A stretch of DNA of 64,000 bases from Escherichia coli (GTDB taxonomy: Bacteria > Pseudomonadota > Gammaproteobacteria > Enterobacterales > Enterobacteriaceae), in NCBI RefSeq assembly GCF_051903065.1, contig NZ_CP178438.1; one strand, given 5' to 3'. A program made the position numbers and the translations under genes. Positions 2,629-64,000 of this stretch are shown piece after piece; within the stretch, counting starts at the first letter, position 1, and every line of letters begins with the position of its first letter. Below the pieces are notes generated by a model, which made no database searches, was not told the DNA's origin, and saw only the letters and a list, made by a program, of their open reading frames with translations.

Positions 2629-8180
<5,552 letters not shown>

Positions 8181-25056: not shown

Positions 25057-25105
25057 TACGTTATTCCTGCAAATGCGAGGGGGCGCAATTGCGCCCCGAA
25101 GAAAA

Positions 25106-26527: not shown

Positions 26528-26592
26528 AAAGCCCCATGGCAGATGACATTTTTGGTTGGCTGCAGAATATATTGCGCGGAAAAATTTAAAAA

Positions 26593-26606
26593 CGGGAACG
26601 TTCCCG
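26593..26606. promoter_or_regulatory. palindromic operator candidate (TreR site) in treB promoter region
   Basis: Perfect palindrome cgggaacgttcccg between treR and treB. Confidence 0.5.
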
Positions 26607-26645
26607 AAACGCAGCGAAGATCACAATTTATCGTTCAGGAAACGA

Positions 26646-27593
26646 TCAGGACAGGGTGGCGGGGATGATGATTTGTTGCGGTTCGCTGCGCCCGGTTACC
26701 TGTGCGATCAACTGGCAGGCCGCCTGGCGTCCAGCTTCGGCGTAACCGGGATCTACGGTGACGATCTCCGGATGGAGGAATTTCATTAACGGCGTATTAC
26801 CGACGCTCGCCAGTTGCAAGGTGTCGATGCGTTGCTCTTGCAGGTATTTACTTGCGCCAAGTGCCAGCGTGTCGGTTGCGCACAGTAAGGCGGTAGTTTC
26901 AGGCGTAATCACTTTTGCTACGTTCTCATAGCCTTGCTTCATAGCAAGGCCTGGCAGGGCGGCAACGGGATGCAGTTTATGCGCTTTGCAGAACGCCAGG
27001 TAGGCTTCGTGACGTCGCTTACCGGTTGTCACGTCACTGTGCGGCACGCCGAGATAACTGATATTACGATGCCCCTGGTCATACAGCCGTTGCATCAGGA
27101 TCTTGATTGCCCCTTCGTCGTCATAACAGACCGAAGCAAAGCCTTTTGCGTCACGCGCCAGCAGAACCAGCGATGACTGCCAGTGGGCTAACATTTCTTC
27201 TGTTATGCCAGTAAAACCGAACAGCACTACGCCGTCGATATTACGCCGTTTCAGCACCCCCAAATGTTCGGCAACTAATTGCGGGGAAAACTGACTTTCC
27301 ATCATGATTGGGTCGTAACCTTGTTCATAGAACGCTGGCAGCATGGTTTGAACGGCGAGATTTTCTGACAACGAATCCAGACGGGTAACAATGATGGCGA
27401 CCACTTTATCGCTTTGCCCACGCATAGCGCGCGCAGAACGGGAAGGGGAAAATCCATGCTGATTCATCACTGCTTCAACACGCTCGCGCGTGCGCTGGCT
27501 CACGCCGCTTTCGTTATTCAGCACCCGGGAAACCGTAGATTTCCCCACGCCGCTTAAGCGCGCGATGTCTTTGATGGTCAGCCGATTTTGCAT
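26646..27593 (-). CDS. treR: trehalose operon repressor (LacI family)
   Basis: 315-aa ORF with N-terminal HTH (IKDIARLSGVGKSTVSRVLN). Confidence 0.95.
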   Translation of the reverse strand: MQNRLTIKDIARLSGVGKSTVSRVLNNESGVSQRTRERVEAVMNQHGFSPSRSARAMRGQSDKVVAIIVTRLDSLSENLAVQTMLPAFYEQGYDPIMMESQFSPQLVAEHLGVLKRRNIDGVVLFGFTGITEEMLAHWQSSLVLLARDAKGFASVCYDDEGAIKILMQRLYDQGHRNISYLGVPHSDVTTGKRRHEAYLAFCKAHKLHPVAALPGLAMKQGYENVAKVITPETTALLCATDTLALGASKYLQEQRIDTLQLASVGNTPLMKFLHPEIVTVDPGYAEAGRQAACQLIAQVTGRSEPQQIIIPATLS

Positions 27594-27667
27594 CCTGTTG
27601 TCCTGTAACGTGTTGTTTAATTATTTGAGCCTAACTTTACCCGTGCATTCAGCAATGGGTAAAGTCT

Positions 27668-27684
27668 GGTTTATCGTTGGTTTA
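27668..27684 (+). promoter_or_regulatory. PhoP box direct repeat upstream of mgtA
   Basis: GGTTTA-tcgtt-GGTTTA direct repeat matches the PhoP box consensus. Confidence 0.6.
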
Positions 27685-27777
27685 GTTGCCAGCAGGTATT
27701 ATATCGCCATAGATGCTACGAATATTATTGGATTCTCCTTATTATTTGCGGCGCTTTTTTCACTTACCGGAGGTTAT

Positions 27778-27831
27778 ATGGAACCTGATCCCACGCCTCT
27801 CCCTCGACGGAGATTAAAACTTTTCCGGTAA
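27778..27831 (+). CDS. mgtL: proline-rich leader peptide MgtL of the mgtA Mg2+-sensing leader
   Basis: 17-codon [20 protein letters not shown] in the mgtA 5' leader. Confidence 0.8.
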
Positions 27832-27971
27832 GCCCGTCTTTTCACGGCGTTACCGGATGCGTAAGGCCGTGACGTTTTAACGTCCCTGCTCAGCTTTATT
27901 ACCTTCAGGTAAGGCTTCGCCACGCCTGAAGACATTTCTGTACTGTTTCAGACAGTGCGGAGGGACTCCTT

Positions 27972-30668
27972 ATGTTTAAAGAAATTTTTACCCGGCTCAT
28001 TCGCCATTTACCTTCCCGTCTGGTTCATCGCGATCCATTGCCTGGCGCGCAGCAGACAGTGAATACGGCGGTCCCGCCGTCCTTAAGTGCGCATTGCCTG
28101 AAAATGGCGGTGATGCCCGAAGAAGAATTATGGAAAACGTTCGACACCCATCCGGAAGGGTTAAATCAGGCGGAAGTGGAATCTGCCCGCGAACAACATG
28201 GTGAAAATAAATTACCCGCACAACAACCGTCGCCGTGGTGGGTACATTTATGGGTCTGCTATCGCAACCCCTTTAATATTTTACTCACCATTCTCGGCGC
28301 TATTTCTTACGCCACGGAAGATTTATTTGCTGCGGGCGTTATCGCGCTAATGGTCGCTATTTCTACGTTGCTGAACTTTATTCAGGAAGCACGTTCCACT
28401 AAAGCGGCAGATGCCCTGAAAGCGATGGTCAGCAATACTGCGACGGTGCTGCGCGTAATTAACGACAAAGGCGAAAATGGCTGGCTGGAGATCCCGATCG
28501 ACCAGCTGGTGCCCGGCGATATTATAAAACTGGCGGCGGGAGATATGATCCCGGCAGATTTACGTATCTTGCAGGCGCGGGATCTGTTCGTCGCTCAGGC
28601 GTCGTTAACCGGTGAGTCTCTGCCCGTAGAAAAAGCCGCTACCACTCGCCAGCCGGAGCACAGCAATCCGCTGGAGTGCGACACGCTGTGTTTTATGGGC
28701 ACCACCGTGGTGAGCGGCACGGCACAAGCAATGGTGATTGCTACAGGTGCCAATACCTGGTTTGGTCAACTGGCGGGGCGTGTTAGTGAGCAGGAAAGCG
28801 AGCCGAATGCCTTTCAGCAAGGGATCAGCCGCGTCAGTATGCTGCTGATTCGCTTTATGCTGGTGATGGCACCGGTGGTGCTGTTAATCAATGGCTACAC
28901 CAAAGGCGACTGGTGGGAAGCGGCGCTGTTTGCGCTTTCGGTCGCGGTAGGCCTAACGCCGGAAATGTTGCCGATGATTGTTACCTCGACGCTGGCGCGC
29001 GGCGCAGTAAAGCTGTCGAAACAGAAAGTGATCGTCAAACATCTGGATGCTATTCAGAACTTTGGCGCAATGGATATTCTGTGCACTGATAAAACCGGCA
29101 CCCTGACGCAGGATAAAATTGTGCTGGAGAATCATACCGATATCTCCGGTAAAACCAGCGAACGCGTGCTGCATAGCGCGTGGTTGAACAGTCATTATCA
29201 GACCGGACTTAAAAACCTGCTCGATACAGCGGTGCTCGAAGGTACGGATGAAGAGTCAGCGCGCTCGCTGGCCAGTCGTTGGCAAAAAATCGATGAGATT
29301 CCGTTTGATTTCGAGCGTCGCCGGATGTCGGTGGTAGTGGCAGAAAATACCGAGCACCATCAGCTGGTTTGCAAAGGCGCATTGCAGGAAATCCTCAATG
29401 TGTGTTCGCAGGTGCGTCACAATGGCGAGATTGTGCCGCTCGATGACATCATGCTGCGTAAGATTAAGCGGGTTACTGATACGCTGAATCGTCAGGGGCT
29501 GCGCGTGGTTGCGGTGGCGACGAAATACCTGCCAGCGCGTGAAGGAGATTACCAGCGGGCGGATGAATCCGACCTGATCCTTGAAGGATATATTGCTTTT
29601 CTTGATCCGCCAAAAGAGACAACCGCTCCGGCACTGAAGGCATTAAAAGCGAGTGGAATTACCGTAAAAATCCTTACTGGCGACAGTGAGTTAGTTGCAG
29701 CGAAAGTGTGCCATGAAGTGGGGCTGGACGCGGGAGAGGTGGTCATTGGTAGTGATATTGAAACGCTATCTGACGACGAACTGGCAAATCTTGCACAGCG
29801 CACCACGCTGTTTGCCCGCCTGACGCCGATGCATAAAGAACGCATTGTGACCTTACTGAAGCGCGAAGGGCATGTGGTTGGCTTTATGGGCGATGGTATT
29901 AATGATGCGCCCGCCTTACGCGCGGCGGATATCGGCATTTCTGTGGACGGCGCGGTAGATATTGCCCGTGAAGCGGCTGATATCATCCTGCTGGAAAAAA
30001 GCCTGATGGTGCTGGAAGAGGGGGTTATTGAGGGACGTCGCACTTTCGCCAACATGCTGAAATACATCAAAATGACGGCGAGTTCTAACTTCGGTAATGT
30101 GTTCAGCGTGCTGGTGGCGAGTGCTTTCTTGCCCTTCCTGCCGATGTTGCCGTTACACTTGCTTATTCAGAACCTGCTGTACGATGTGTCACAGGTGGCG
30201 ATCCCGTTTGATAATGTCGACGACGAGCAAATTCAAAAGCCGCAGCGTTGGAATCCGGCGGATCTGGGGCGCTTTATGATCTTCTTCGGACCGATCAGCT
30301 CGATCTTCGATATTCTGACGTTTTGCCTGATGTGGTGGGTATTCCATGCCAACACGCCGGAAACGCAAACGCTGTTCCAGTCGGGATGGTTTGTGGTGGG
30401 CTTACTGTCGCAAACGCTGATTGTGCATATGATCCGCACCCGCCGTGTGCCGTTTATTCAGAGCTGTGCATCGTGGCCGTTAATGATCATGACCGTGATC
30501 GTGATGATTGTCGGTATCGCATTGCCGTTTTCACCGCTGGCCAGTTATCTGCAGCTGCAGGCGCTGCCGTTAAGCTATTTCCCGTGGCTGGTTGCGATTC
30601 TGGCAGGGTATATGACATTAACCCAGTTGGTGAAAGGGTTCTATAGCCGTCGTTACGGCTGGCAATAA
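27972..30668 (+). CDS. mgtA: Mg2+-importing P-type ATPase
   Basis: 898-aa ORF with DKTGTLT phosphorylation motif and GDGINDAPAL. Confidence 0.95.
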   Translation: MFKEIFTRLIRHLPSRLVHRDPLPGAQQTVNTAVPPSLSAHCLKMAVMPEEELWKTFDTHPEGLNQAEVESAREQHGENKLPAQQPSPWWVHLWVCYRNPFNILLTILGAISYATEDLFAAGVIALMVAISTLLNFIQEARSTKAADALKAMVSNTATVLRVINDKGENGWLEIPIDQLVPGDIIKLAAGDMIPADLRILQARDLFVAQASLTGESLPVEKAATTRQPEHSNPLECDTLCFMGTTVVSGTAQAMVIATGANTWFGQLAGRVSEQESEPNAFQQGISRVSMLLIRFMLVMAPVVLLINGYTKGDWWEAALFALSVAVGLTPEMLPMIVTSTLARGAVKLSKQKVIVKHLDAIQNFGAMDILCTDKTGTLTQDKIVLENHTDISGKTSERVLHSAWLNSHYQTGLKNLLDTAVLEGTDEESARSLASRWQKIDEIPFDFERRRMSVVVAENTEHHQLVCKGALQEILNVCSQVRHNGEIVPLDDIMLRKIKRVTDTLNRQGLRVVAVATKYLPAREGDYQRADESDLILEGYIAFLDPPKETTAPALKALKASGITVKILTGDSELVAAKVCHEVGLDAGEVVIGSDIETLSDDELANLAQRTTLFARLTPMHKERIVTLLKREGHVVGFMGDGINDAPALRAADIGISVDGAVDIAREAADIILLEKSLMVLEEGVIEGRRTFANMLKYIKMTASSNFGNVFSVLVASAFLPFLPMLPLHLLIQNLLYDVSQVAIPFDNVDDEQIQKPQRWNPADLGRFMIFFGPISSIFDILTFCLMWWVFHANTPETQTLFQSGWFVVGLLSQTLIVHMIRTRRVPFIQSCASWPLMIMTVIVMIVGIALPFSPLASYLQLQALPLSYFPWLVAILAGYMTLTQLVKGFYSRRYGWQ

Positions 30669-50844: not shown

Positions 50845-50929
50845 GCCGAAGTGGCGAAATCGGTAGACGCAGTTGATTCAAAATCAACCGTAGAAATACG
50901 TGCCGGTTCGAGTCCGGCCTTCGGCACCA
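50845..50929 (+). tRNA. leuX: tRNA-Leu (anticodon CAA)
   Basis: 85-nt sequence gccgaagtggcgaaatcggtagacgcagttgattCAAaatcaacc...ggttcgagtccggccttcggcacca with D-arm, long variable arm, T-arm and CCA end. Confidence 0.95.
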
Positions 50930-51115: not shown

Positions 51116-52381
51116 ATGGCATTAACAGATATCAAAGTCAGAGCAGCCAAGCCAACGGATAAGCAATATAAGCTGACTGATGGTGGCGGTATGCATCTGC
51201 TTGTCCATCCAAATGGTTCTAAGTACTGGCGTTTGCAGTACCGTTATGAGGGAAAGCAAAAAATGCTGGCACTTGGGGTTTATCCTGAAATCACACTAGC
51301 GGATGCCAGAGTACGTCGTGACGAGGCGCGTAAGCTGCTTGCGAATGGCGTCGATCCGGGAGACAAAAAGAAAAATGATAAGGTTGAACAGAGTAAAGCA
51401 CGAACCTTTAAAGAAGTCGCGATTGAGTGGCATGGCACCAATAAAAAGTGGTCTGAAGATCACGCCCATCGTGTGCTAAAAAGTCTGGAAGATAATCTTT
51501 TTGCAGCGCTTGGTGAACGTAATATCGCTGAGTTAAAAACTCGAGATTTATTAGCACCCATTAAGGCCGTAGAAATGTCTGGACGTCTTGAAGTGGCCGC
51601 TCGTCTTCAGCAGCGCACTACAGCCATCATGCGCTATGCAGTGCAAAGTGGGTTAATTGATTATAACCCGGCACAAGAGATGGCTGGGGCGGTTGCTTCC
51701 TGTAATCGACAACATCGTCCCGCGCTTGAATTAAAGCGCATCCCTGAGTTGCTTACAAAAATAGATAGCTATACTGGTAGGCCGCTAACCCGATGGGCGA
51801 CAGAACTCTCTTTGCTGATCTTTATTCGGTCCAGTGAGCTGCGTTTTGCTCGTTGGTCAGAGATCGATTTCGAAGCGTCTATATGGACTATCCCACCGGA
51901 GCGGGAGCCTATTCCTGGAGTGAAACATTCCCATAGAGGCTCAAAAATGCGTACAACGCATCTAGTGCCTCTTTCAACGCAAGCTCTTGCAATTTTAAAG
52001 CAGATAAAACAGTTTTGTGGGGCCCATGACTTGATATTTATTGGTGATCACGATTCGCACAAACCCATGAGTGAGAATACGGTAAATAGTGCGTTACGGG
52101 TCATGGGGTATGATACAAAAGTAGAGGTTTGTGGTCATGGCTTTCGAACAATGGCCTGTAGTTCATTGGTCGAATCAGGTTTGTGGTCTCGTGATGCTGT
52201 TGAACGTCAGATGAGCCACATGGAGCGAAATTCAGTGAGGGCCGCGTATATCCATAAAGCAGAGCATCTGGAAGAACGCCGCTTGATGCTACAATGGTGG
52301 GCCGATTTTCTGGATGCAAACAGAGAAAAATTTATCAGTCCATTTGAATATGCAAAGATTAATAATCCATTAAAACAGTAA
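51116..52381 (+). CDS. P4-type tyrosine integrase (IntB-like) marking a leuX-integrated island
   Basis: 421-aa ORF immediately 3' of a tRNA gene, N-terminal MALTDIKVRAAKP...KYWRL typical of P4 integrases, C-terminal catalytic region with conserved HxxR and Tyr; RBS agggaggg. Confidence 0.9.
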   Translation: MALTDIKVRAAKPTDKQYKLTDGGGMHLLVHPNGSKYWRLQYRYEGKQKMLALGVYPEITLADARVRRDEARKLLANGVDPGDKKKNDKVEQSKARTFKEVAIEWHGTNKKWSEDHAHRVLKSLEDNLFAALGERNIAELKTRDLLAPIKAVEMSGRLEVAARLQQRTTAIMRYAVQSGLIDYNPAQEMAGAVASCNRQHRPALELKRIPELLTKIDSYTGRPLTRWATELSLLIFIRSSELRFARWSEIDFEASIWTIPPEREPIPGVKHSHRGSKMRTTHLVPLSTQALAILKQIKQFCGAHDLIFIGDHDSHKPMSENTVNSALRVMGYDTKVEVCGHGFRTMACSSLVESGLWSRDAVERQMSHMERNSVRAAYIHKAEHLEERRLMLQWWADFLDANREKFISPFEYAKINNPLKQ

Positions 52382-52704: not shown

Positions 52705-54204
52705 TTACCTGTGGTCCGGAAGAATAAGTGGCTGCGGTTTCAGACTGTCTGCCGGCACATTTTTCTCTCCGTTAAAAACCATAACGGGTTCATTATCTTC
52801 GTCTGTCAGCGGATTGAATGGCGGTATATTTTCGGTACGAATACCGGTCAGCCACTGAAAAATGCCTGCGAAATTACGGGCACTGATTTTCCTGCTGACG
52901 GACTGATGAGACGTGATGTCACTGGCGGTAATAATCAGGGGAACGCTGTAGCCCCCCTGCACATGACCATCATGATGAACAGGATTAGCACTGTCGCTGA
53001 CCGACAGCCCATGGTCAGAAAAGTAAAGCATTGCAAAGTGACGGGAATGCCGGCGAAGGATACCATCAAGCTGACCGAGAAAGTTATCCAGTTTACTGAT
53101 GCTGGCGAGGTAACAGGCAATCTTTCGGGGATACTGCTCCAGGTAATAATTCGGCCAGGAGTTAAGTCGGTCACACGGATTCGGATGAGAGCCAATCATG
53201 TGCAGGAAAATCACCTTCGGCGAGGATTTATCCGCCAGCGCACGTTCTGTTTCCTGTAACAACAACATGTCATCCGTTTTACGGGAAGCGAAGCTGCCTT
53301 TCTTGAGGAAAACGGTATGCTCCGCATCAGAAGCAATAACAGAGATGCGTGTGTCATGCTCTCCCAGTTTTCCCTGATTGGATATCCACCATGTGCTGTA
53401 TCCTGCTTTTGCTGCCAGCGCCACCACGTTGTTGCCGGAGTCAGGGTTCTGCTCATAGTCATAAATCAGTGTCCGGCTCAGGGAAGGTACGGTACTGGCT
53501 GCTGTCGATGTATAGCCGTCAATAAATAAACCGGGAGCAGTATTCAGCCACGGCGTGGTTGGCACGGGATAGCCATATACCGACATATAATCCCTGCGCA
53601 CACTCTCACCAGTAACGATAACAATCGTGTCATACAACGGCACACCCGGCAGGATTTTCCAGTTATCAGCCCCGTGCTGACTCAGTTGTTTATAACGCTG
53701 CATTTCACGCAATGTGTCAGTTGTCCCCACAACAGTTCCTTTAACCATCCGCAACGGCCAGCTGTTTACAGAGCATAATACGAATAGCAGCAGTGCCAGC
53801 CAGTTACGGTGACCGCGGTGGTGTGTCCGCCAGAAAATCACCATGAATACCAGAATCGCGGCACTGACCAGAAAATGATAAACAGGAATCATCCCGGTAA
53901 ACTCTGCAGCCTCATCAGCCGTGGTCTGCAGCAACGCGACAATAAAACTGTTGTTGATTTTACCGTACGTCATACCCGCAGGCGCATACAGTGCACAACA
54001 GAACAGAAATAACAGCGCTGTAATGGATGTGAGGGTATTTCTGTGTGCAAGGAGAAGAAGGAGAAACAGAAGCAGCACATTTCCTGTGGCATTCTTCTCA
54101 GTGTATCCGCATGCAATTGTGGTTATTGCAGAAACAACAAAAAAGAATAAAAACAATAAAATCCGGGGTGTGTTTCCCGGACAAAACAGTTTTCTGATAT
54201 TCAT
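52705..54204 (-). CDS. sulfatase-family inner membrane protein, phosphoethanolamine transferase-like (EptA/OpgE family; yjgX-like)
   Basis: 499-aa ORF with N-terminal TM helices and C-terminal sulfatase-type domain (HMIGSH...SDHG). Confidence 0.75.
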   Translation of the reverse strand: MNIRKLFCPGNTPRILLFLFFFVVSAITTIACGYTEKNATGNVLLLFLLLLLAHRNTLTSITALLFLFCCALYAPAGMTYGKINNSFIVALLQTTADEAAEFTGMIPVYHFLVSAAILVFMVIFWRTHHRGHRNWLALLLFVLCSVNSWPLRMVKGTVVGTTDTLREMQRYKQLSQHGADNWKILPGVPLYDTIVIVTGESVRRDYMSVYGYPVPTTPWLNTAPGLFIDGYTSTAASTVPSLSRTLIYDYEQNPDSGNNVVALAAKAGYSTWWISNQGKLGEHDTRISVIASDAEHTVFLKKGSFASRKTDDMLLLQETERALADKSSPKVIFLHMIGSHPNPCDRLNSWPNYYLEQYPRKIACYLASISKLDNFLGQLDGILRRHSRHFAMLYFSDHGLSVSDSANPVHHDGHVQGGYSVPLIITASDITSHQSVSRKISARNFAGIFQWLTGIRTENIPPFNPLTDEDNEPVMVFNGEKNVPADSLKPQPLILPDHR

Positions 54205-54363
54205 CGGAGTATATCGACAACATTATGATGAAGAGAACAGGATAATAAAAATCAGAAATTATCTGTAAAACAGATAACAGACAACCCTGCAGTATAATTA
54301 CTGCAGGGTGTTTCCTTTTAATTACAGAAGATAAGTAATTATTATCTTTCAGGAGCAGTTTCG

Positions 54364-55104
54364 TCAGAAGTTATAAGTCACACCAAGCATGATGTCATGA
54401 CTTTTAACATCAACCTCTGATTTATATTTATCGCCCCACTCATCCTTGTAACTCACACTGCTGTCACCTGCATCAATATAGCGATAGCTGAGGTCAAGAG
54501 CGATATCCGGGGTTACGTCATAACGGACACCAGCCCCAAGGCTCCATGCAAAGTTGTCAGCAGAGTCTGAGTGTGACAACGACTCACGCCCACTGTACCC
54601 GTACCCATAATCCCAGGTACTGATACCAGTTGTTTTCTGATGAATTCTGGCGTAACCAATCCCTGCGGATACCCATGGTGTGAATGCACTGTCGTTCCGG
54701 AAGTCATAGTACGTATTCAGCATCAGAGTGTTGACTGACACTTCATTCTTCAGGTCATCACGCCAGTAACCACCTGACCAGCTGTCTTTATCTACGTTAT
54801 ACTTCGAATCAGCTTTTCCACGCGCGTAAAACTCCAGTTCTGTACGAACCGGAATACTGAACTGCGGATAAAAATCATAACCGGCCGCAATACCGCCACT
54901 GAATACCGTATCATGGTCATCGCCGCCTTTATACTTTGACGTTTCTTCCTCATCTCCTGACAGGAAACGCTGGTCTGAAAGTGACACCACAGAGGCACCG
55001 GCTTTACCGGTCAGATAAAAACCGCTTTTACCTTCCTCAGCACCTGCATTTGCTGCAAATACACAGGCTGCGGCCACCACTGAAACAGCAAAAACCTTTT
55101 TCAT
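54364..55104 (-). CDS. outer membrane beta-barrel protein (OmpA-like transmembrane domain family)
   Basis: 246-aa ORF with signal peptide MKKVFAVSVVAAACVFAANAGA, alternating aromatic/hydrophobic beta-strand pattern and C-terminal ...GVTYNF. Confidence 0.7.
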   Translation of the reverse strand: MKKVFAVSVVAAACVFAANAGAEEGKSGFYLTGKAGASVVSLSDQRFLSGDEEETSKYKGGDDHDTVFSGGIAAGYDFYPQFSIPVRTELEFYARGKADSKYNVDKDSWSGGYWRDDLKNEVSVNTLMLNTYYDFRNDSAFTPWVSAGIGYARIHQKTTGISTWDYGYGYSGRESLSHSDSADNFAWSLGAGVRYDVTPDIALDLSYRYIDAGDSSVSYKDEWGDKYKSEVDVKSHDIMLGVTYNF

Positions 55105-55455
55105 TTCAATTATCTCCGTTATTGCTCCGTTGCTGCAAGCAGTACTCAGTGCATTTTAAAACCCGCCATGCGATAGTCTCAATTGAATAAAATCGATCTA
55201 ATCGATAGATGATATCGATCGTCATTAACCAGAAATTTTTATCGTATTCAGTCAGCACAGATACAACAAATGCATGCCATGCAGACAGTCATACCCGGCA
55301 ACAACAGCAGATGGTTGCTGAGCAAGCAGGGAGTGAGGCTGAATCCCGGGGAAGAAAAAACCTGTAAAATTTGTTTATTCTGCCAGGAGATAAAAGTGAC
55401 GTGTGTTCATGTAACACACCAGGGACGAAAGATGCATGGACTGACAGTTTGGGGG

Positions 55456-56512
55456 GGCTTTGTTGAATAAATCGAACTTTTGCTGAGTTGAAGGATCAGA
55501 TCACGCATCCTCCCGACAACACAGACCATTCCGTGGCAAAGCAAAAGTTCAGAATCACCAACTGGTCCACCTACAACAAAGCTCTCATCAACCGTGGCTC
55601 CCTCACTTTCTGGCTGGATGATGAAGCGATTCAGGCCTGGTATGAGTCGGCAACGCCTTCATCACGAGGAAGGCCCCAGCGCTATTCTGATCTCGCCATC
55701 ACCACCGTTCTGGTGATTAAACGCGTATTCCGGCTGACCCTGCGGGCTGCGCAGGGTTTTATTGATTCCATTTTTGCCCTGATGAACGTTCCGTTGCGCT
55801 GCCCGGATTACACCAGTGTCAGTAAGCGGGCAAAGTCGGTTAATGTCAGTTTCAAAACGTCCACCCGGGGTGAAATCGCACACCTGGTGATTGATTCCAC
55901 CGGGCTGAAGGTCTTTGGTGAAGGCGAATGGAAAGTCAGAAAGCACGGCAAAGAGCGCCGTCGTATCTGGCGAAAGTTGCATCTTGCTGTTGACAGCAAC
56001 ACACATGAAGTTGTCTGTGCAGACCTGTCGCTGAATAACGTCACGGACTCAGAAGCCTTCCCGGGCCTTATCCGGCAGACTCACAGAAAAATCAGGGCAG
56101 CCGCGGCAGACGGGGCTTACGATACCCGGCTCTGTCACGATGAACTGCGCCGCAAAAAAATCAGCGCGCTTATTCCTCCCCGAAAAGGAGCAGGTTACTG
56201 GCCCGGTGAGTACGCAGACCGCAACCGTGCCGTTGCTAATCAGCGGCTGAGCGGAAGCAATGCACGGTGGAAATGGACAACGGAATATAACCGTCGCTCG
56301 ATAGCGGAAACGGCAATGTACAGAATGAAGCAGTTGTTGGGAGATTCACTGACGCTGCGTGACTACGATGGTCAGGTAGCGGAAGCTATGGCCATGGTGC
56401 GTGCGTTGAACAGGATGACAAAGGCTGGGATGCCAGAAAGCGTGCGTATTGCCTGAAAATCCAGCCAGCTACAGGGTCGTTCGCACGAAATCTTATTTAT
56501 TCAACAAAGCCC
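55456..56512 (+). mobile_element. IS903-group insertion sequence (IS5 family), about 1057 bp
   Basis: Left end ggctttgttgaataaatcgaacttttgctgagttgaaggatcag and inverted right end ...tcttatttattcaacaaagcc; single transposase ORF; no flanking 9-bp direct repeat. Confidence 0.85.
55533..56456 (+). CDS. IS903-type transposase (DDE)
   Basis: ORF VAKQKFRITNWSTYNKALINRGSLTFWLDDEAIQAWYE...; start placed at in-frame GTG to give 307 aa (tool ORF begins at TTG 55488). Confidence 0.85.
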   Translation: MAKQKFRITNWSTYNKALINRGSLTFWLDDEAIQAWYESATPSSRGRPQRYSDLAITTVLVIKRVFRLTLRAAQGFIDSIFALMNVPLRCPDYTSVSKRAKSVNVSFKTSTRGEIAHLVIDSTGLKVFGEGEWKVRKHGKERRRIWRKLHLAVDSNTHEVVCADLSLNNVTDSEAFPGLIRQTHRKIRAAAADGAYDTRLCHDELRRKKISALIPPRKGAGYWPGEYADRNRAVANQRLSGSNARWKWTTEYNRRSIAETAMYRMKQLLGDSLTLRDYDGQVAEAMAMVRALNRMTKAGMPESVRIA

Positions 56513-57624
56513 ATACCCCTCTGAAAATCAGTCATCAACTCACCAACACATCTTCTGAAATCTGTATTAAACTTATTGCTTAAATAGATGATATAACACA
56601 TCTTCCATTGCACGGAATCAGCGAAAACTGTCATTCTGGCAATCTTAACAAGATCATTTATCGGTTAATTTTATCAGTAAACAATGGAATATCACACTGA
56701 TAAAATGAACATTCAGGGTAAGATGATAAAATTCACATAAAAAATGCTGAAGATTATTTATTTCATGCAGATAAACGATAAAATACAAGAGAGTATATTT
56801 TTCAGTGTAAGAGTCAATCGTTCATCTCCACTGACGATCACGGTCAGCACATAAACAAAGTGAGTCCTCCTGCTTAGTCATTGCGTATCAGAAACTAAAA
56901 AACAAAAGATTCTGTAAACAACGTGACATTTTTTATGACATTTCCCGAATACAGATATATCAACAAACAGTAGTCAGCGTTGAATTAATAAGTTTTACAG
57001 GGCTATACGTATCTTATAAAACCACTCAACGACCATCATCACCTGACTATTTAGCGGGAGTATCATCTGTATAAATTCCTAAATAATAACACCTGTTATT
57101 AAAATAAGAATGCTGTCAGCAGTAAATTATTAACATAACACCTGTCCACTCTATCTGTTCTTCTAACTCAACCGGCATCGAAAATATTGCCTGATTAGTG
57201 CATCATAGCCTTCTTTTTTCTTTCCCGACCATCAAAACAAATACAACATTTACAACCACACAATAAAACAAAACTAAAACAAAACTAAAACATAAGATTA
57301 ACAACACCAATCAACAGGAAAACACTGAATATTGAGGTGCCCTGTAACCTGGAGAGCGCATACGGCGCATGTGATCAACACAGCCCATTCTTTTCTGTCA
57401 TCCCCCAAATGCAGAACAAACAAGCATAACCTAATGAATATAAAATAAAATATTATTTTTCACCATCATAAAAACATCAATGTATCTTTATATAAAAACA
57501 CTGATAACATGACATAAACATTTAAAAACATAAACAAATCACAACAAAAACATTTGATAATCACTTAGTGACAAAATAAAATTGAGACGATTTTGTTATA
57601 AGAGAGGCGCCATGGAGTGAGATA

Positions 57625-58644
57625 ATGAATAACGAACAGATGCTTATCAAATGCAAAGATCCCCGTAAATGTCGGTTTTATGCTGAATATCTGAATCACA
57701 AATACCCCAATGAATTCCCTCAGTTTGCGCCTGACAACCCACAAAACTGTATCAGAAATGTTAATGCGTTTTTAAAAGAAAAGTATTGTAATACTTCAAA
57801 CAATTCTTTTGGTGTTTTTGGTTCGACTGCAGAAGAAGCTCTCAGCAAAGAAATTAATGAACTTGAAATTATTGCAGGGCAGGCAATACTGCCTGAAGAG
57901 AGTTTTCTCTGGTTGAAAACTGACGAACTTGCGACTTTCTTTACCTGGACTACTATTTATCTGTCGAAGGAAGACCATACAAATTTCCCGGAAATAAACC
58001 ATAATTCATCAGGGATAAAAAACGGAATTGAAGTCAGAAAAAGACGAACAGTTACCGATGAAACGTTAAATACTTACAAAAAAAGTAACCTTCCGGATAA
58101 TCCATCATCCCATAACGAACGAATAAAAGTAATCATTTTATATTTTGATTCCTGTCATTCTTTAATTAATAAAAATGCAAAAAGCATATACCTCGAGGAA
58201 CTCAGGCAGACGTGGCTTAAAAATAAAAGCGCTTGTCAAAAGTTTAAGTGGCTCCTTCCTGACGATGATGAAATGTGTCAGTGGTTCTGGACAAGACTGA
58301 AACAAAAACAGGATGAAACACATCCGGTACATAACCCGGTGACCCGGTGGTTCATACCATCTTCAACGAAAGAATATTATCTTGCCTCTCTCGTCGCCTT
58401 TGCTTTATGGAAAGAGGCACCTGATACCATTGAACTGTTCAGAACACGCATAAATCATGCCTGGCATCAAAAAAAACAAAAAGACAAATATCGGAATGAT
58501 GGTAAAAAGGCTATTAATATACATATAAGAAGCAATGCGAAAGAAATGCTTGATGAACTCAGAACTGTTTACGGTCTGAGAACAGGAGAGTTTTTTGAAA
58601 TGCTGATTACAGAAAAATATCTTGAACACAAGCGAAGGAAGTAA
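57625..58644 (+). CDS. hypothetical protein, AT-rich orphan ORF
   Basis: 339-aa ORF with RBS ggagtgag upstream; lysine/asparagine-rich, several Cys/His; no family recognised from sequence alone. Confidence 0.5.
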   Translation: MNNEQMLIKCKDPRKCRFYAEYLNHKYPNEFPQFAPDNPQNCIRNVNAFLKEKYCNTSNNSFGVFGSTAEEALSKEINELEIIAGQAILPEESFLWLKTDELATFFTWTTIYLSKEDHTNFPEINHNSSGIKNGIEVRKRRTVTDETLNTYKKSNLPDNPSSHNERIKVIILYFDSCHSLINKNAKSIYLEELRQTWLKNKSACQKFKWLLPDDDEMCQWFWTRLKQKQDETHPVHNPVTRWFIPSSTKEYYLASLVAFALWKEAPDTIELFRTRINHAWHQKKQKDKYRNDGKKAINIHIRSNAKEMLDELRTVYGLRTGEFFEMLITEKYLEHKRRK

Positions 58645-58695
58645 TTCATTACCTGTTACATTCTAAATAATCTCAGACAGATATTATCTCCGTGA

Positions 58696-58731
58696 ATCCC
58701 CCGCCACCTTTCCGGTGCGCGGGGTTTTGTC
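58696..58731 (+). terminator. putative rho-independent terminator downstream of the 339-aa ORF
   Basis: GC-rich inverted repeat ccccgc...gcgggg followed by ttttgtctttttt. Confidence 0.45.
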
Positions 58732-58753
58732 TTTTTTCACCGGGAATACATGT

Positions 58754-59581
58754 ATGAATCCGTCTGATGCCATTGAGGCAATTGAAAAACCGCTCTCCTC
58801 CCTGCCTTACTCACTTTCCCGTCACATCCTGGAACATCTGCGCAAACTCACCAGCCACGAACCCGTGATTGGCATTATGGGGAAAAGCGGGGCCGGTAAA
58901 TCCTCACTCTGTAATGCACTGTTTCAGGGGGAGGTCACCCCGGTCAGTGATGTTCACGCCGGCACCCGGGAAGTGCAGCGCTTCCGTCTGAGTGGCCATG
59001 GTCACAGCATGGTTATCACTGACCTGCCCGGGGTGGGCGAGAGCCGTGACAGGGATGCAGAGTATGAAGCCCTGTACCGTAACATTCTGCCTGAACTTGA
59101 CCTGGTACTGTGGCTGATTAAAGCCGATGACCGTGCCTTGTCTGTGGATGAGTATTTCTGGCGACACATTCTGCACCGGGGACATCAGCAGGTGCTGTTT
59201 GTGGTGACGCAGGCCGATAAAACGGAGCCCTGCCATGAATGGGATATGGCCGGTATTCAGCCTTCTCCCGCACAGGCACAGAACATTCGCGAAAAAACGG
59301 AGGCGGTATTCCGTCTGTTCCGGCCCGTACATCCGGTTGTGGCCGTATCGGCTCGCACCGGCTGGGAACTGGATACGCTGGTCAGTGCGCTCATGACAGC
59401 GCTTCCCGACCATGCCGCCAGTCCCCTGATGACCCGCCTGCAGGACGAGCTGCGCACGGAATCTGTCCGCGCTCAGGCCCGTGAACAGTTTACCGGTGCG
59501 GTGGACCGGATATTTGACACGGCGGAGAGCGTCTGTATTGCCTCTGTTGCCCGCGCGGTATGGAACTGGATTTTCTTCTGA
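58754..59581 (+). CDS. YfjP/YeeP/YkfA-family small GTPase (prophage-like island backbone GTPase)
   Basis: P-loop GIMGKSGAGKSSLCNALF, G3 DLPGVGE, G4-like TQADK, C-terminal ...ARAVWNWIFF resembling K-12 YfjP/YkfA from memory; start at ATG 58754 (tool ORF starts at GTG 58715). Confidence 0.8.
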   Translation: MNPSDAIEAIEKPLSSLPYSLSRHILEHLRKLTSHEPVIGIMGKSGAGKSSLCNALFQGEVTPVSDVHAGTREVQRFRLSGHGHSMVITDLPGVGESRDRDAEYEALYRNILPELDLVLWLIKADDRALSVDEYFWRHILHRGHQQVLFVVTQADKTEPCHEWDMAGIQPSPAQAQNIREKTEAVFRLFRPVHPVVAVSARTGWELDTLVSALMTALPDHAASPLMTRLQDELRTESVRAQAREQFTGAVDRIFDTAESVCIASVARAVWNWIFF

Positions 59582-59701
59582 ACCCGGTGGTGATGCACCA
59601 GACTCTTGTTACAGATTTTTAACTCCATGAAAACACAATGCAAACGCAGCCATACCCGGGTTGTCCCCTTGTGTTGTGTTTTCCAGATTAATAGAATGCA
59701 T

Positions 59702-59720
59702 CGATCGTTATAAACGATCG
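59702..59720. promoter_or_regulatory. perfect inverted repeat (cgatcgtt-ata-aacgatcg) about 60 bp upstream of the dynamin-like gene
   Basis: 8-bp arms with 3-bp spacer in the 200-bp gap between the two GTPase genes; candidate operator. Confidence 0.3.
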
Positions 59721-59780
59721 TTTGTGGTAAATGACCTCCTCCGTGGTTGTCATGAAAATGCGTCTCAGGAAGGTTAAATA

Positions 59781-62165
59781 ATGCACGAAAAGAACATCGC
59801 CCTGCTTTGTGATGAAGCCGACCGACTTTTGCAACTGAACATTAATCTGCTCCGGCAAATGGTTGATGAACCGGATGTGTTATCTGACAGTAAGAACGAA
59901 AACAGACTGCTTTTCGATAAACAGAAAGCACTGAAAAGAATTGAGGAGCTGGAGGGCGAACAAATCAAAACCGCCCGCAGGGAGATGGTGCTGGCTGTTG
60001 TCGGCACGATGAAAGCAGGTAAATCAACTACCATCAACGCCATTGTGGGGCAGGAAATTCTGCCTAACCGTAACCGCCCCATGACCTCTGTACCGACGCT
60101 CATCCGCCACGTTCCCGGAAAAACTGAGCCGGTCCTCCATCTGGAACATATTCAGCCCGTCCGCAATTTATTAAGCACACTGCAACAAAAACTCGACACC
60201 CCGGCAGGACAGCAAGTCGCACAGACCCTGCAGCAAACCGGGGATACCTGCGAACTGCTGGATATTCTGGCAAATGATGGCTGGCTCAAAAATGAATACC
60301 ACGGGGAGGAGGAAATCTTTACCGGACTGGCATCGTTAAACGATCTGGTTCGCCTTGCTGCGGCAATGGGGAGTGAGTTTCCTTTTGATGAATACGCAGA
60401 AGTGCAGAAACTGCCGGTGATCGACGTGGAATTCAGCCATCTGGTGGGGATGGATGCATGCCAGGGAACACTCACACTGCTGGATACCCCCGGCCCTAAT
60501 GAGGCCGGACAACCGCAGATGGAAGTGATGATGCGGGATCAACTGCAGAAAGCCTCTGCGGTGCTGGCGGTGATGGATTACACCCAGATGAACTCAAAAG
60601 CGGATGAAGACGTCCGTAAAGAGCTTAATGCCATTGCTGACGTATCAGCCGGCCGCCTGTTTGTGCTGGTCAATAAATTTGATGAGAAAGACCGCAATGG
60701 CGATGGGGCAGATGCCGTACGCCAGAAAGTTCCGGCAATGCTGAACAGTGATGTGCTGCCCGCCTCCCGCGTTTATCCAGGCTCATCACGTCAGGCGTAC
60801 CTGGCTAACCGTGCGCTTCATGAGTTACGGAAAAACGGAACCCTTCCTGTTGATGAAGCCTGGGTCGATGATTTTGTCAGGGAAGCCTTCGGTCGCATGA
60901 AAAAAGAATACGTCTGTAAAGACAGTGAAATGGCAACCGAAGGGGCGACAGACCTGTGGGAAGGTTCACTTATCGATCAACTGATAACGGAAGTCATACA
61001 GAGCTCCCATTCCAGAGCGGCGGCACTGGCGGTTGATTCTGCCGCCGCAAAACTGATGCAGAATGCGGAAAATGTCAGCGAATATCTGTCATTACGCCAT
61101 CAGGGGCTACAGCAAAGCATTCAGTCACTGCAGGCGCATATCTCCAGCCTGCTGGCGGATATCCGGGAAATCGCGGACTGTCAGGAGCAGGTGACCGCAG
61201 ATGTCAGAATGGCTATGGAGGAGATCGATACTAAAACCCGGGAATTACTGACGGGGGTCTGCACCTCACTGGAAGAGGAGCTGAATGACTATTTCAGAAG
61301 CGGTAAACGCAAAGAACAGCAAATGCTGGAGGAAGAAAATTCAGCGCAGCCCCGGGAGAGAAACGCATTCGCTTTCTTTCACGATATTTTCGGAACCGGA
61401 AATCAGCATGACAGGATGCGGGACTTTGATCCGGACAGCCCCGAAATAAAATTCAGTGATCGCAGGGAAGCCCTTGAACTGATGACGCAAATCGAATCGA
61501 CCGTGACCAGCCTGCACCGTGAGGCTGAAGCACAGTTCCGTCCTGAACTGGAAAAAATCGTCAGGGGTATTGAAACAGGTTTTCGTGGTACGGCCCTGTA
61601 CGCCACAGAAAATATTGCCGGACGCATCAATGCCCGTCTGGAGGATGAAGGTTTCACTGTAAAAATCAGTTTTCCGGCAGTCAGCCAGTTACAGACCCGG
61701 CTCGCAGTAAAAACAAATCTGAGCGCGCTTATGGAGGAAAGAACGGAGACCGTCACTCGTCGCTGTCGACAGGATGGTGTCTGGGGTACGCTTTGTCGAT
61801 GGGCAAACACCAGTGACTGGGGCTGGAAAGAGTACAGTGTGGATGTGAGCCGCAGCGTGATCAATATCAACAAGGTCAGAGAGGAAGTGATGTCACTGAC
61901 CCGGGCATATTTCGGGGAGCTGCAGGCATCCATTGAGCAGGATATTAACCAGCCCGTCCGCCAGGAAATCGATGCCTTTTTCTGCGCATTCAGGGAGAAA
62001 GTTGAACAACTGCGTAACACGCTGATTCAGAGCTCTGAAGATCGTAAACGCGATCAGCAGGCGCAGGAACGGCTTACCGGGCGACTTCAGGCATTAAATG
62101 AAAGGGTTCCTGAGCTCATTACTGACAGTAAGGCGCTGAGGGAAGAGCTGGAGACAATGCTGTGA
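59781..62165 (+). CDS. bacterial dynamin-like large GTPase
   Basis: 794-aa ORF; G1 VVGTMKAGKSTTINAIVG (res 73-90), G3 LLDTPGPNE, G4 VLVNKFDEKD, followed by about 500 aa of helical/coiled-coil stalk-like sequence; RBS caggaagg 7 nt upstream. Confidence 0.8.
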   Translation: MHEKNIALLCDEADRLLQLNINLLRQMVDEPDVLSDSKNENRLLFDKQKALKRIEELEGEQIKTARREMVLAVVGTMKAGKSTTINAIVGQEILPNRNRPMTSVPTLIRHVPGKTEPVLHLEHIQPVRNLLSTLQQKLDTPAGQQVAQTLQQTGDTCELLDILANDGWLKNEYHGEEEIFTGLASLNDLVRLAAAMGSEFPFDEYAEVQKLPVIDVEFSHLVGMDACQGTLTLLDTPGPNEAGQPQMEVMMRDQLQKASAVLAVMDYTQMNSKADEDVRKELNAIADVSAGRLFVLVNKFDEKDRNGDGADAVRQKVPAMLNSDVLPASRVYPGSSRQAYLANRALHELRKNGTLPVDEAWVDDFVREAFGRMKKEYVCKDSEMATEGATDLWEGSLIDQLITEVIQSSHSRAAALAVDSAAAKLMQNAENVSEYLSLRHQGLQQSIQSLQAHISSLLADIREIADCQEQVTADVRMAMEEIDTKTRELLTGVCTSLEEELNDYFRSGKRKEQQMLEEENSAQPRERNAFAFFHDIFGTGNQHDRMRDFDPDSPEIKFSDRREALELMTQIESTVTSLHREAEAQFRPELEKIVRGIETGFRGTALYATENIAGRINARLEDEGFTVKISFPAVSQLQTRLAVKTNLSALMEERTETVTRRCRQDGVWGTLCRWANTSDWGWKEYSVDVSRSVININKVREEVMSLTRAYFGELQASIEQDINQPVRQEIDAFFCAFREKVEQLRNTLIQSSEDRKRDQQAQERLTGRLQALNERVPELITDSKALREELETML

Positions 62166-63067
62166 CTTCACCATTTATTCAACAAATTGCTGATAACCGG
62201 GTATGTCAGGTACTCACCTGTCTTCCTGAAAAATTTGTGGTTGATTTCGCAAACGGAATCGATGTTGCACAGGAGCATATCCGCACGGCCGGAGAGCGCA
62301 CGTTCTTCCGGCGTTTAAAAGAGGGGATGACCGGCGAAGGCGCTGCACGGCAGAATGCCATCAATGCTTCGCTTGCACAGGGCGTTGAGGCGTCCCTGCG
62401 CTGGCTGACGGAGCTGACAACGTCACTTGCCACCACAAACTACGCGATTACCCGGGTAAACGACAGGGTCAGTTCACTGGTCAGTGATACTGCCAGGCTG
62501 GCGCATTATTCGGCTGACACGCGGGAGCAGTTACTCACCCTGGCCGATCAGGTTCACCAGAAACTGAATCATCTTGAAGAAAAACTCCACCGTGTTGACC
62601 AGGTTCAGCGGGCGCAGTTACATCTTGAGCAGATATTCTCATGGTGGAGCGCCGGGCGATATGCGTCATTTTCCCCTGCCGGACGTTGTTATGTGGCACT
62701 TGAAGAGCTTCGCTGGGGCGCGTTTGGTGATGTGATACGCCAGGGCGAAACAGGCCAGGTTAACCAGCTACTGGATATTCTCAGACATAAAGCATTAACG
62801 CAGATGGCACAGGAGAGTGGCGGTAGTGCAACCGTGCGTCTGAACACTCTGGACTGGCTTGGTGGTCAGGGCCGGGAGCAGGCAGATAACGAGTGGCATG
62901 ACGCGATTAACTGGCTGGGGGACTGGTGCAGTGAAGAGCAGCATCCGGTGATCTGGTCAACCACGCAGGCTGCAGAACACTTACCGGTTCGCATGCCTCG
63001 CCTCTGCTCTGCAGAACGCCTCTCTGAAAGTATGGTCGATGAAATATTTCAGAAGGGGGCAGCATGA
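62162..63067 (+). CDS. hypothetical protein of unknown function, translationally coupled to flanking genes
   Basis: 301-aa ORF whose GTG start overlaps the upstream stop (GTGA) and whose stop overlaps the downstream ATG (ATGA); predicted helical middle region. Confidence 0.55.
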   Translation: MTSPFIQQIADNRVCQVLTCLPEKFVVDFANGIDVAQEHIRTAGERTFFRRLKEGMTGEGAARQNAINASLAQGVEASLRWLTELTTSLATTNYAITRVNDRVSSLVSDTARLAHYSADTREQLLTLADQVHQKLNHLEEKLHRVDQVQRAQLHLEQIFSWWSAGRYASFSPAGRCYVALEELRWGAFGDVIRQGETGQVNQLLDILRHKALTQMAQESGGSATVRLNTLDWLGGQGREQADNEWHDAINWLGDWCSEEQHPVIWSTTQAAEHLPVRMPRLCSAERLSESMVDEIFQKGAA

Positions 63068-64000
63068 GTACAGAAATGAAAACGGGGCTGGTGCTGTCCG
63101 GCGGCGGGGCGGTGGGCGCTTATCAGGCAGGTGTGGTTAAGGCACTGGCAGAGTGTGGCACACAGATCAGCATGGTTTCAGGGGCCAGCATTGGCGCATT
63201 CAATGGTGCCATTATCGCGGCCTCTCCCGATCTGTCAGAAGCAGCCGCACGCCTGGAGGCGCTCTGGAAGCATCTGGGGAATAATCAGGTGCTGTCGGTA
63301 AACCGATCGGTTTACTTTTCATTGCTGAAAAAAATGGTTCAGGCCATGAACCTCTGCCAGATCCCCGGACGTGCAGGAGCACTGCTTACGACACTTCTTC
63401 GCCATATATCGATAATCAACGGCTTCGACAATCCGATGGCTCAGCCGCTGTTGTCAGATGAGCCTCTGACAGCGCTGTTGGATCATTATCTTGATACTGA
63501 TGCTCTGGCAGACGGGCTACCGCTGTATGTGTCGCTGTACCCCACAGAAGGGGGCATGCAGGATATTATTGACTGCATTCGTGCTGAACTGGGTGCCGGA
63601 ACCACGAAAAACGCCGTTTTTCAGCATATCCAGAGCCTGCCCCGCGGACAGCAGAAAGAGGCTCTGCTTGCGTCAGCCGCGCTGCCCCTGCTGTTCCGTC
63701 CCCGTGAGGTTCAGGGGACAATGTTCGGTGATGGTGGTATGGGAGGATGGCGAAATATGCAGGGAAATACCCCTGTGACGCCTCTGGTCGATGCCGGATG
63801 CAATATGGTGATTGTGACGCATCTGAGTGACGGTTCTTTATGGGATCGCCAGGCTTTTCCGGACACCACAATCCTTGAGATCCGTCCCCGGAAAAGGCTG
63901 AAATATGCAGGTGATGGTGGCAACAGCGGCGGTCTGCTCAGTTTCACGTTGGCACATACCGACGCCTGGCGTCAGCAGGGCTATGAAGACACGATGCTGA
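63064..64000 (+). CDS. patatin-like phospholipase (3' end beyond window)
   Basis: Oxyanion-hole GGGAVGAY, catalytic Ser in GASIG (GxSxG) and catalytic Asp in FGDGGM (DGG) in the correct order and spacing; ORF is open to the window end. Confidence 0.8.
   Translation, partial: MSTEMKTGLVLSGGGAVGAYQAGVVKALAECGTQISMVSGASIGAFNGAIIAASPDLSEAAARLEALWKHLGNNQVLSVNRSVYFSLLKKMVQAMNLCQIPGRAGALLTTLLRHISIINGFDNPMAQPLLSDEPLTALLDHYLDTDALADGLPLYVSLYPTEGGMQDIIDCIRAELGAGTTKNAVFQHIQSLPRGQQKEALLASAALPLLFRPREVQGTMFGDGGMGGWRNMQGNTPVTPLVDAGCNMVIVTHLSDGSLWDRQAFPDTTILEIRPRKRLKYAGDGGNSGGLLSFTLAHTDAWRQQGYEDTML

Follow-up and report, generated by a model that had tools for sequence, protein, structure and literature searches.

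A Gammaproteobacterial Island Protein Family With a C-Terminal Ribbon-Helix-Helix Domain, Probably an Autoregulated Repressor, Encoded in the leuX Island of Escherichia coli

Introduction

What is the role of an AT-rich gene encoding 339 aa that is located in an Escherichia coli island between an insertion sequence and the gene of a YfjP/YeeP-like GTPase? The question is raised by a stretch of 64,000 nucleotides from contig NZ_CP178438.1, the whole of which is called the window in the following. An earlier note had described the gene as an orphan with its own terminator and as recently acquired cargo, which could code for a regulator, an abortive-infection protein or an accessory component of the dynamin-patatin module further downstream. 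Islands with P4-type integrase, AlpA, Gp2-like, DUF932, antirestriction, RadC and CbtA genes are among the commonest mobile elements of Enterobacterales, and the majority of E. coli have CP4-57-like islands, which also occur throughout Gammaproteobacteria. Adhesins, defence systems and toxin-antitoxin pairs are encoded there, and little is known about gene switching in such islands beyond AlpA. In the literature on YfjP/YeeP, on Gp2/AlpA islands and on DUF932/RadC, no study of the protein family described here was found.

Results

The gene (57625-58644, plus strand) starts with ATG and is preceded at a distance of 7 nt by the Shine-Dalgarno sequence GGAG (57614-57617, plus strand; direct sequence reading), and its product is identical to RefSeq WP_023145611.1, a 'hypothetical protein'. 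With a GC content of 0.368, the ORF lies below both the GTPase gene (0.576) and the window as a whole (0.511). The protein contains 10% Lys and 8.3% Asn (18% in sum), 7 Cys, 11 His and 9 Trp residues and terminates with KYLEHKRRK, in line with the earlier description of an AT-rich, Lys/Asn-rich reading frame with a good ribosome binding site. An open frame of 1020 nt in DNA of 37% GC would be very unlikely to have arisen by chance. Moreover, orthologues with 48-59% identity and many invariant Trp/Cys/Arg positions are encoded in Edwardsiella, Rahnella and Yersinia. Hence, the gene is real and conserved, and the possibility of a spurious ORF can be dismissed.

A tRNA-Leu(CAA) gene at 50845-50929 is followed by an integrase gene, which identifies this region of the window as leuX island. 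The left part of the island comprises the integrase gene (51116-52381) as well as genes for a phosphoethanolamine transferase (52705-54204, minus strand) and an outer-membrane protein (54364-55104, minus strand). As stated in the earlier note, the 339-aa gene lies between IS903 and the YfjP-like GTPase gene, with an IS5-family (IS903-type) transposase ORF on its left (55488-56456) and the gene of the YfjP/YeeP-like GTPase, a frequent downstream neighbor of the family gene, on its right (58754-59581, plus strand). The 1.1 kb between IS and gene (56457-57624) are non-coding, AT-rich (GC 0.33) and A-rich, and contain an 11-nt tandem unit ACAAAACTAAA at 57268-57295. From position 56510 on, this spacer shows 99% identity in other E. 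coli; at distances of more than about 200 nt from the gene, conservation is lost in other genera, where the orthologous spacers are also long (0.56-1.5 kb). The window segment 50000-64000 matches the complete genome GDSC2BY4G at 99.8%, the gene there likewise corresponding to WP_023145611.1, and of 5426 complete E. coli genomes, 244 contain a 1361-bp segment with the 339-aa gene.

In 32 of about 48 loci, AlpA and/or inovirus-Gp2-like genes are oriented divergently to the family gene, an arrangement seen in Enterobacterales, Vibrionaceae, Shewanella, Pseudoalteromonas, Psychromonas and others. Close orthologues from Edwardsiella, Rahnella, Yersinia and a metagenome contig share one gene order, in which minus-strand Gp2-like (YagK_YfjJ) and AlpA genes are followed by a 0.56-1.5-kb spacer, the family gene and the YfjP-like GTPase gene, then by variable genes and finally by DUF932, antirestriction, RadC, DUF987, CbeA and CbtA genes. 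At 25-37% identity, family genes are still paired divergently with AlpA and/or Gp2-like genes, even without the GTPase gene, and often abut a P4-type integrase gene. A convergent integrase gene was seen in several loci of the family. For a scan of one genome per species, KAWxQKKxRD was converted to a degenerate DNA pattern that by its construction cannot capture the subfamily of the window (HAWHQKKQKD); it resulted in 39 loci, 36 with a family member. According to local HMM annotation, a divergent AlpA/Gp2-like gene is present in 23 of these 36 loci and a GTPase gene directly downstream in 14, with DUF932 taking this position in other surveyed loci; in all close orthologues, the GTPase gene is the downstream one. 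Overlapping or directly adjoining family and GTPase genes are found in other subfamilies. The sole plasmid occurrences of the gene were on Klebsiella megaplasmids, again within this island backbone. The 339-aa gene is thus a backbone gene of CP4-57-like islands and not cargo. From the earlier notion of recently acquired cargo, the horizontal origin persists due to the location in the leuX island, while the cargo status has to be abandoned for a gene that is syntenic in the islands of many genera. The alpA and Gp2-like genes, companions of the family elsewhere, are missing from the window's island and have presumably been displaced by IS activity, as an IS1 remnant is found in the same place in the E. 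coli loci L001 and L002.

Downstream of the GTPase gene, positions 59781-63067 encode a dynamin-family (794 aa) and an RdcB-family protein (301 aa), with the gene of a patatin-like phospholipase lying beyond the window end; the coordinates of these genes in locus L061 are 23771-28124. PADLOC assigned only weak LeoBC/LeoA-type matches, for GTPase and dynamin. Near its 3' end, the GTPase gene of the window lacks 45 nt (15 codons) relative to the L001/L002 copy (275 versus 290 aa), the alignment skipping from L001 position 17160 to 17204 at window position 59559. Homology to other E. coli copies stops at the GTPase gene, the dynamin module thus being swapped with Ag43 in other strains. The same gene precedes Ag43, in other E. 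coli, or WYL/DUF932 operons, in both cases without dynamin, and dynamin-RdcB-patatin genes elsewhere have a different upstream gene or none. As gene and module each occur without the other, the previously considered function as accessory component of the module is contradicted. The 'different' upstream gene encodes a 383-aa 'hypothetical protein' (4860-6011 of locus L009, E. coli STEC409) and is located in front of another GTPase-dynamin-RdcB-patatin cluster. This protein, with an insertion that separates the last helical module from the C-terminal domain described below, turned out to be a divergent family member (hhalign 98.5%) in which the motif of helical repeat 3 is present as well. Hence, the slot before the GTPase gene is usually filled by the family, and in E. 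coli several deeply diverged paralogous subfamilies occupy the same slot.

The gene is not an orphan, as an exhaustive HMMER search among 50%-identity clusters revealed 305 relatives at E ≤ 1e-3 and 114 at E ≤ 1e-10, nearly all of about 290-335 aa and distributed across Gammaproteobacteria. With a word-indexed search, only 8 clusters from E. coli, Edwardsiella (58% identity), Rahnella and Yersinia (both about 50%) were retrieved. For many of the relatives, the alignment begins only at about residue 145. A Foldseek search of AFDB50 yielded 126 matches at E ≤ 1e-3, almost all 'uncharacterized', from Enterobacterales, Vibrionaceae, Oceanospirillales, Alteromonadales and others. The protein did not match any family of the PADLOC and PHROGs libraries, and tblastn against 50,697 phage genome records was negative. 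K-12 YfjH, encoded in the CP4-57 slot between intA and alpA, was considered as a family member and rejected (hhalign probability 0.4%, BLASTP E 0.12). Shortened or frameshifted variants of the gene form the clusters P0002 (300 aa) and P0003 (216 aa), with 174 sequences each, so that the gene is decaying in some E. coli lineages.

Structure prediction by AlphaFold with 7 close homologues was unusable (pLDDT 49.6), and an alignment of 134 sequences was used instead, resulting in a model with a pLDDT of 91.2 and a pTM of 0.86. In this model, an all-helical N-terminal region with an internal duplication is followed by a C-terminal ribbon-helix-helix (RHH) domain. The duplication is evident from profile-profile alignment of helical repeat 2 (aa 69-115; 57829-57969, plus strand; F-x-W-L ... 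x-W-x-x-x-Y) with helical repeat 3 (aa 183-231; 58171-58317, plus strand; F-K-W-L ... C-Q-W-F-W), giving a probability of 96.6-97.7% and E values of 5e-10 to 2e-12. Common to both is the motif F-x-W-L...(R/Q)-(A)-C-x-W-x-W-x-Y. A further copy may be present at residues 8-25, where the profile alignment is weak. Neither Pfam, NCBIfam, PHROG, PADLOC nor PDB contained a match to the N-terminal 290 residues, fold searches with this region did not return informative structural relatives, and enzymatic or membrane features were found in the 339-aa protein neither with Pfam nor in the model.

The RHH domain (aa 293-338; 58501-58638, plus strand) consists of a strand, KKAINIHIR, and two helices, i.e., the C-terminal approximately 45 residues adopt the strand-helix-helix fold of the RHH superfamily, and the protein ends 5-10 residues past the second helix. 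When comparing the family profile with PDB entries, SvtR (2kel) was found at E 0.0039 and CopG at E 0.65. PF10723 is matched in 7 of the 134 members at E ≤ 1e-3 and in 43 at E ≤ 0.1, and PF01402 in 9 of them at E ≤ 0.1; the window protein alone has a weak PF10723 match (11.8 bits, E 0.24). Accordingly, the earlier statement that no family is recognizable still applies to the N-terminal 290 residues and is superseded for the C-terminal 45.

For the 339-aa gene, a sigma-70 promoter is predicted at 57554-57582 (plus strand), with TTGATA (57554-57559) and TAAAAT (57577-57582) separated by a 17-nt spacer. With 10 of 12 consensus matches, this is the best site of a consensus scan over 56400-59000, although the number of consensus-like sites in the region does not exceed shuffle expectation; in the orthologue alignment, -35 and -10 elements show no obvious conservation in other genera. 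Within the promoter spacer, 54-64 nt before the ATG, lies the palindrome TCACT-T-AGTGA (TCACTTAGTGA; 57561-57571, without strand assignment), a candidate operator. It is part of the sole long invariant block upstream of five orthologues, AATCACT(T/G)AGTGA, in 400 nt of aligned and otherwise poorly conserved sequence; 12 of the 13 columns of this block are invariant, which was reached by none of 20000 column shuffles. TCACTTAGTGA is unique in the 64-kb window (0 mismatches), and each orthologous locus has one copy. The distance between dyad and start codon is 54-84 nt in orthologues, compared to 0.56-1.5 kb between the gene and the Gp2-like gene. An inverted repeat (57551-57563 / 57641-57653) was dropped as it is not conserved in orthologues.

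TCACTTAGTGA is an instance of a family-wide dyad, YAC-N3-GTR, which 33 of 38 family genes have within the preceding 110 nt, where 0.07 would be expected from the background; the rule was defined post hoc from these same sequences, and in the whole window the pattern occurs at chance frequency. In other subfamilies, the dyads, e.g., TACGTAGTG, TACTTAGTA and TACGCAGTA, are located at -20 to -100, and YAC-N3-GTR dyads cluster at the family-gene end of the divergent intergenic region. Perfect 6+6 palindromes are not clearly enriched upstream of family genes, about 0.6 being expected per 250 nt of AT-rich DNA by our own estimate; informative here are only the orthologue footprint and the specific dyad, not generic palindromes. 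The recognition strand KKAINT(Y/H)IRK pairs with the half-site TCACT/AGTGA. Two otherwise unalignable groups with the strand VLNTYISK both have CTACG(T) repeats, with 5 copies per 120 nt versus 0.15 expected.

Downstream of the 339-aa gene, a GC-rich hairpin with T-run is present at 58699-58737 (plus strand; stem 58699-58708/58714-58724, loop 58709-58713, T-run 58725-58737), the sequence after the hairpin (58699-58724) being TTTTGTCTTTTTT. Folding of 58680-58745 gave a dG of -25.5 kcal/mol and a z score of -3.6, with none of 200 shuffles as good, and hairpin and T-run were also detected by a terminator scan. By alignment, a promoter of the GTPase gene is predicted just upstream (58661-58687, plus strand), with TTCTAA (58661-58666), a 15-nt spacer and TATTAT (58682-58687). 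This promoter includes the box TCAGAyAGATATyA (58673-58686, plus strand), which is invariant in 8 leaders from 5 genera and aligns with the RpoD promoter sites of K-12 yfjP and ykfA, for which constitutive promoters TTGAAA-15-TATCAT have been described upstream (PMC3946193). The leader of YfjP/YeeP/YkfA-like GTPase genes thus consists of promoter box, hairpin and T-run, with the start codon about 16 nt later. The hairpin fold persists despite differing stem sequences in Edwardsiella, Rahnella, Yersinia, locus L060 and K-12 yfjP; for Rahnella, Yersinia and L060, there is also an outer stem between sequence ahead of the hairpin and the GTPase Shine-Dalgarno sequence. The approximately 100 bp at 58659-58760 recur, irrespective of the upstream gene, at about 9100 sites distributed over 4190 of the 5426 E. 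coli genomes. Rfam did not contain anything relevant to 54000-64000. Judged by its sequence, the hairpin is a putative terminator of the 339-aa gene and at the same time a promoter-proximal terminator in the GTPase leader. The earlier claim that the gene has its own terminator is thus correct in part, the hairpin being a component of the leader of YfjP-like GTPase genes. An attenuator or an RNA of about 45 nt is suggested by the position of the terminator only ~5 nt after the predicted GTPase transcription start. With the hairpin as terminator, the 339-aa gene of the window subfamily would represent a self-contained unit of promoter-operator, coding sequence and terminator.

Discussion

Of the three functions proposed in the earlier note, it is the regulator that agrees with the C-terminal DNA-binding domain of RHH type and with the dyad conserved in the promoter of the gene itself. 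We consider it reasonably probable that the 339-aa protein is a repressor of RHH type that belongs to the island control region and regulates its own gene. The C-terminal RHH domain would dimerize, and its two-stranded sheet would enter the major groove of the TCACT-T-AGTGA dyad; as the dyad is flanked by the predicted -35 and -10 elements of this very gene, the protein would repress its own transcription. The N-terminal 290 residues, with two clear and perhaps three Trp-rich helical modules, may function in oligomerization or signal sensing and modulate binding. In islands with P4-type integrase, AlpA, Gp2-like, DUF932, antirestriction and RadC genes, the family gene is located at the control region, where the alpA/Gp2-like genes are divergent from it and the GTPase/DUF932/antirestriction genes follow behind it. 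While the analysis shows conservation of the gene, RHH fold, internal duplication, synteny and the conserved dyad with its position, we infer that this protein, and not another, binds the dyad, that binding represses and that the N-terminal region has any such role. As only one dyad was found per locus, control of alpA, of the Gp2-like gene or of the GTPase promoter by this protein is not indicated.

Similarity to known RHH (MetJ/Arc/CopG) repressors, such as CopG of pMV158, SvtR of SIRV1 and the antitoxins TacA, ParD and FitA, is apparent from the profile matches to SvtR and CopG and, with regard to autoregulated representatives, from a short palindrome in the gene's own promoter. However, RHH repressors mostly have 45-100 aa or an N-terminal RHH domain, whereas in the 339-aa protein the domain follows 290 residues of helical repeats. 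Likeness to CopB/RepB-RCR_reg (PF10723; PRK13702, 'replication regulatory protein RepA') is weak and covers the RHH residues 292-334, the NCBIfam model PRK13702 scoring 14.8 bits versus a cut-off of 87 and aligning at model positions 39-81 only. CopB is a plasmid copy-number repressor of about 85 aa; in contrast, the protein studied here is four times larger and encoded by a chromosomal island. Across E. coli, it is annotated as 'hypothetical protein', 'transcriptional regulator' or 'replication regulatory protein RepB'. The latter two RefSeq names are due to the weak RHH similarity to the CopB family, and 'RepB' is not justified considering the far-below-threshold scores, the size and the chromosomal island location.

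A further protein to be compared is MatP, the Ter macrodomain protein, which binds the 13-bp palindrome matS. As in MatP, a helical bundle directly precedes the RHH domain and the candidate target is a palindrome of 11-13 bp, and MatP 11-131 can be aligned with the profile of the C-terminal half at 17-18 bits and an E value of 0.02-0.03, with no major gaps. Membership in the MatP family is not supported, hhalign probability (18%) and Foldseek E value (7.9) being below significance; a search for diverse MatP sequences yielded only E. coli proteins of about 99% identity. True MatP proteins carry both PF06303 (N-terminal) and PF17414 (C-terminal), neither of which is matched by the window protein or any of the 134 members. 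Unlike MatP, the 339-aa protein lacks a C-terminal coiled coil for tetramerization, has two extra helical modules and is island-encoded with one site at its own promoter, compared to the many chromosomal sites of MatP. In terms of function only, the SaPI master repressor Stl is an analogue as a large regulator at the divergent control region of a chromosomal island, beside excision and replication genes. Stl has a helix-turn-helix domain, and so homology to the 339-aa protein can be excluded; in contrast to Stl, control of the leftward genes or an inducer is not apparent here.

The RHH domain could also be that of an architectural or origin-binding protein, whose dyad would belong to a site of island replication, transfer or DNA organization and which would serve the Gp2-like rolling-circle initiator or resemble MatP, ParG or TraY in its action, with DNA bridging or partner recruitment by the large helical region. 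This would fit the divergent Gp2-like (REP_ORF2-G2P/YagK_YfjJ) gene found across a long AT-rich spacer in many loci, the similar target length of MatP and the appearance of RHH accessory proteins such as TraM among the fold matches. We nevertheless deem it unlikely, since the dyad keeps its distance to the start codon of the 339-aa gene and not to the Gp2-like gene, it lies within a promoter-like site and is single in each locus instead of forming an array, neither a ParA-type partner nor a relaxase was found in the loci examined, the resemblance to MatP is not significant, and degenerate islands such as that of this window have retained the gene after loss of the Gp2-like gene. The most improbable proposal is a defence or abortive-infection effector or accessory subunit of the dynamin-RdcB-patatin module, already disfavored by the separate occurrence of gene and module as well as by the lack of PADLOC and PHROG matches and of enzymatic or membrane features; it has in its favor that the gene adjoins GTPase, dynamin and patatin genes in the window and that many defence systems reside in islands of the same class.

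Regarding the repeat region, a sensor-repressor analogous in function to Stl is conceivable, whose RHH domain keeps the island quiescent until an incoming phage or plasmid protein binds the repeats, leading to derepression, expression of the antirestriction/GTPase operon and excision. The gene's place at the divergent control region beside alpA and often the integrase gene is compatible with such a switch, as is the large, faster evolving non-DNA-binding part, reflected in the many relatives aligning only from about residue 145. Moreover, related Pseudomonas islands with integrase, AlpA, Gp2-like and RadC genes belong to a class mobilized by a jumbo phage (PMC12595487), a study in which the 339-aa family protein is not mentioned. 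On the other hand, a second operator was not found at the alpA/Gp2-like end, in the window subfamily a terminator lies behind the gene and the GTPase gene is equipped with a separate promoter, and for the N-terminal fold neither informative relatives nor a known ligand or partner can be named, so that we assign this proposal the same low probability as the architectural one. Slightly less probable again is its extension, according to which the family would consist of MatP-related RHH proteins and be the master switch of CP4-57-like islands, its triplicated Trp-rich region sensing an incoming phage or plasmid factor, so that repression is released and antirestriction/GTPase expression, and possibly excision, is coupled to invasion.

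An autoregulated repressor, the reading preferred here, is not surprising as a kind of protein, since autoregulated RHH repressors are commonplace. While such autoregulators are already known, this one represents a large family with a new repeat-built helical domain and a fixed place in a very common island class. For CP4-57-like islands, a candidate island regulator, an 11-bp candidate operator and the YAC-N3-GTR dyad rule are thereby provided, and the misleading database names 'RepB' and 'hypothetical' are corrected, which is useful for annotation and for work on island regulation.
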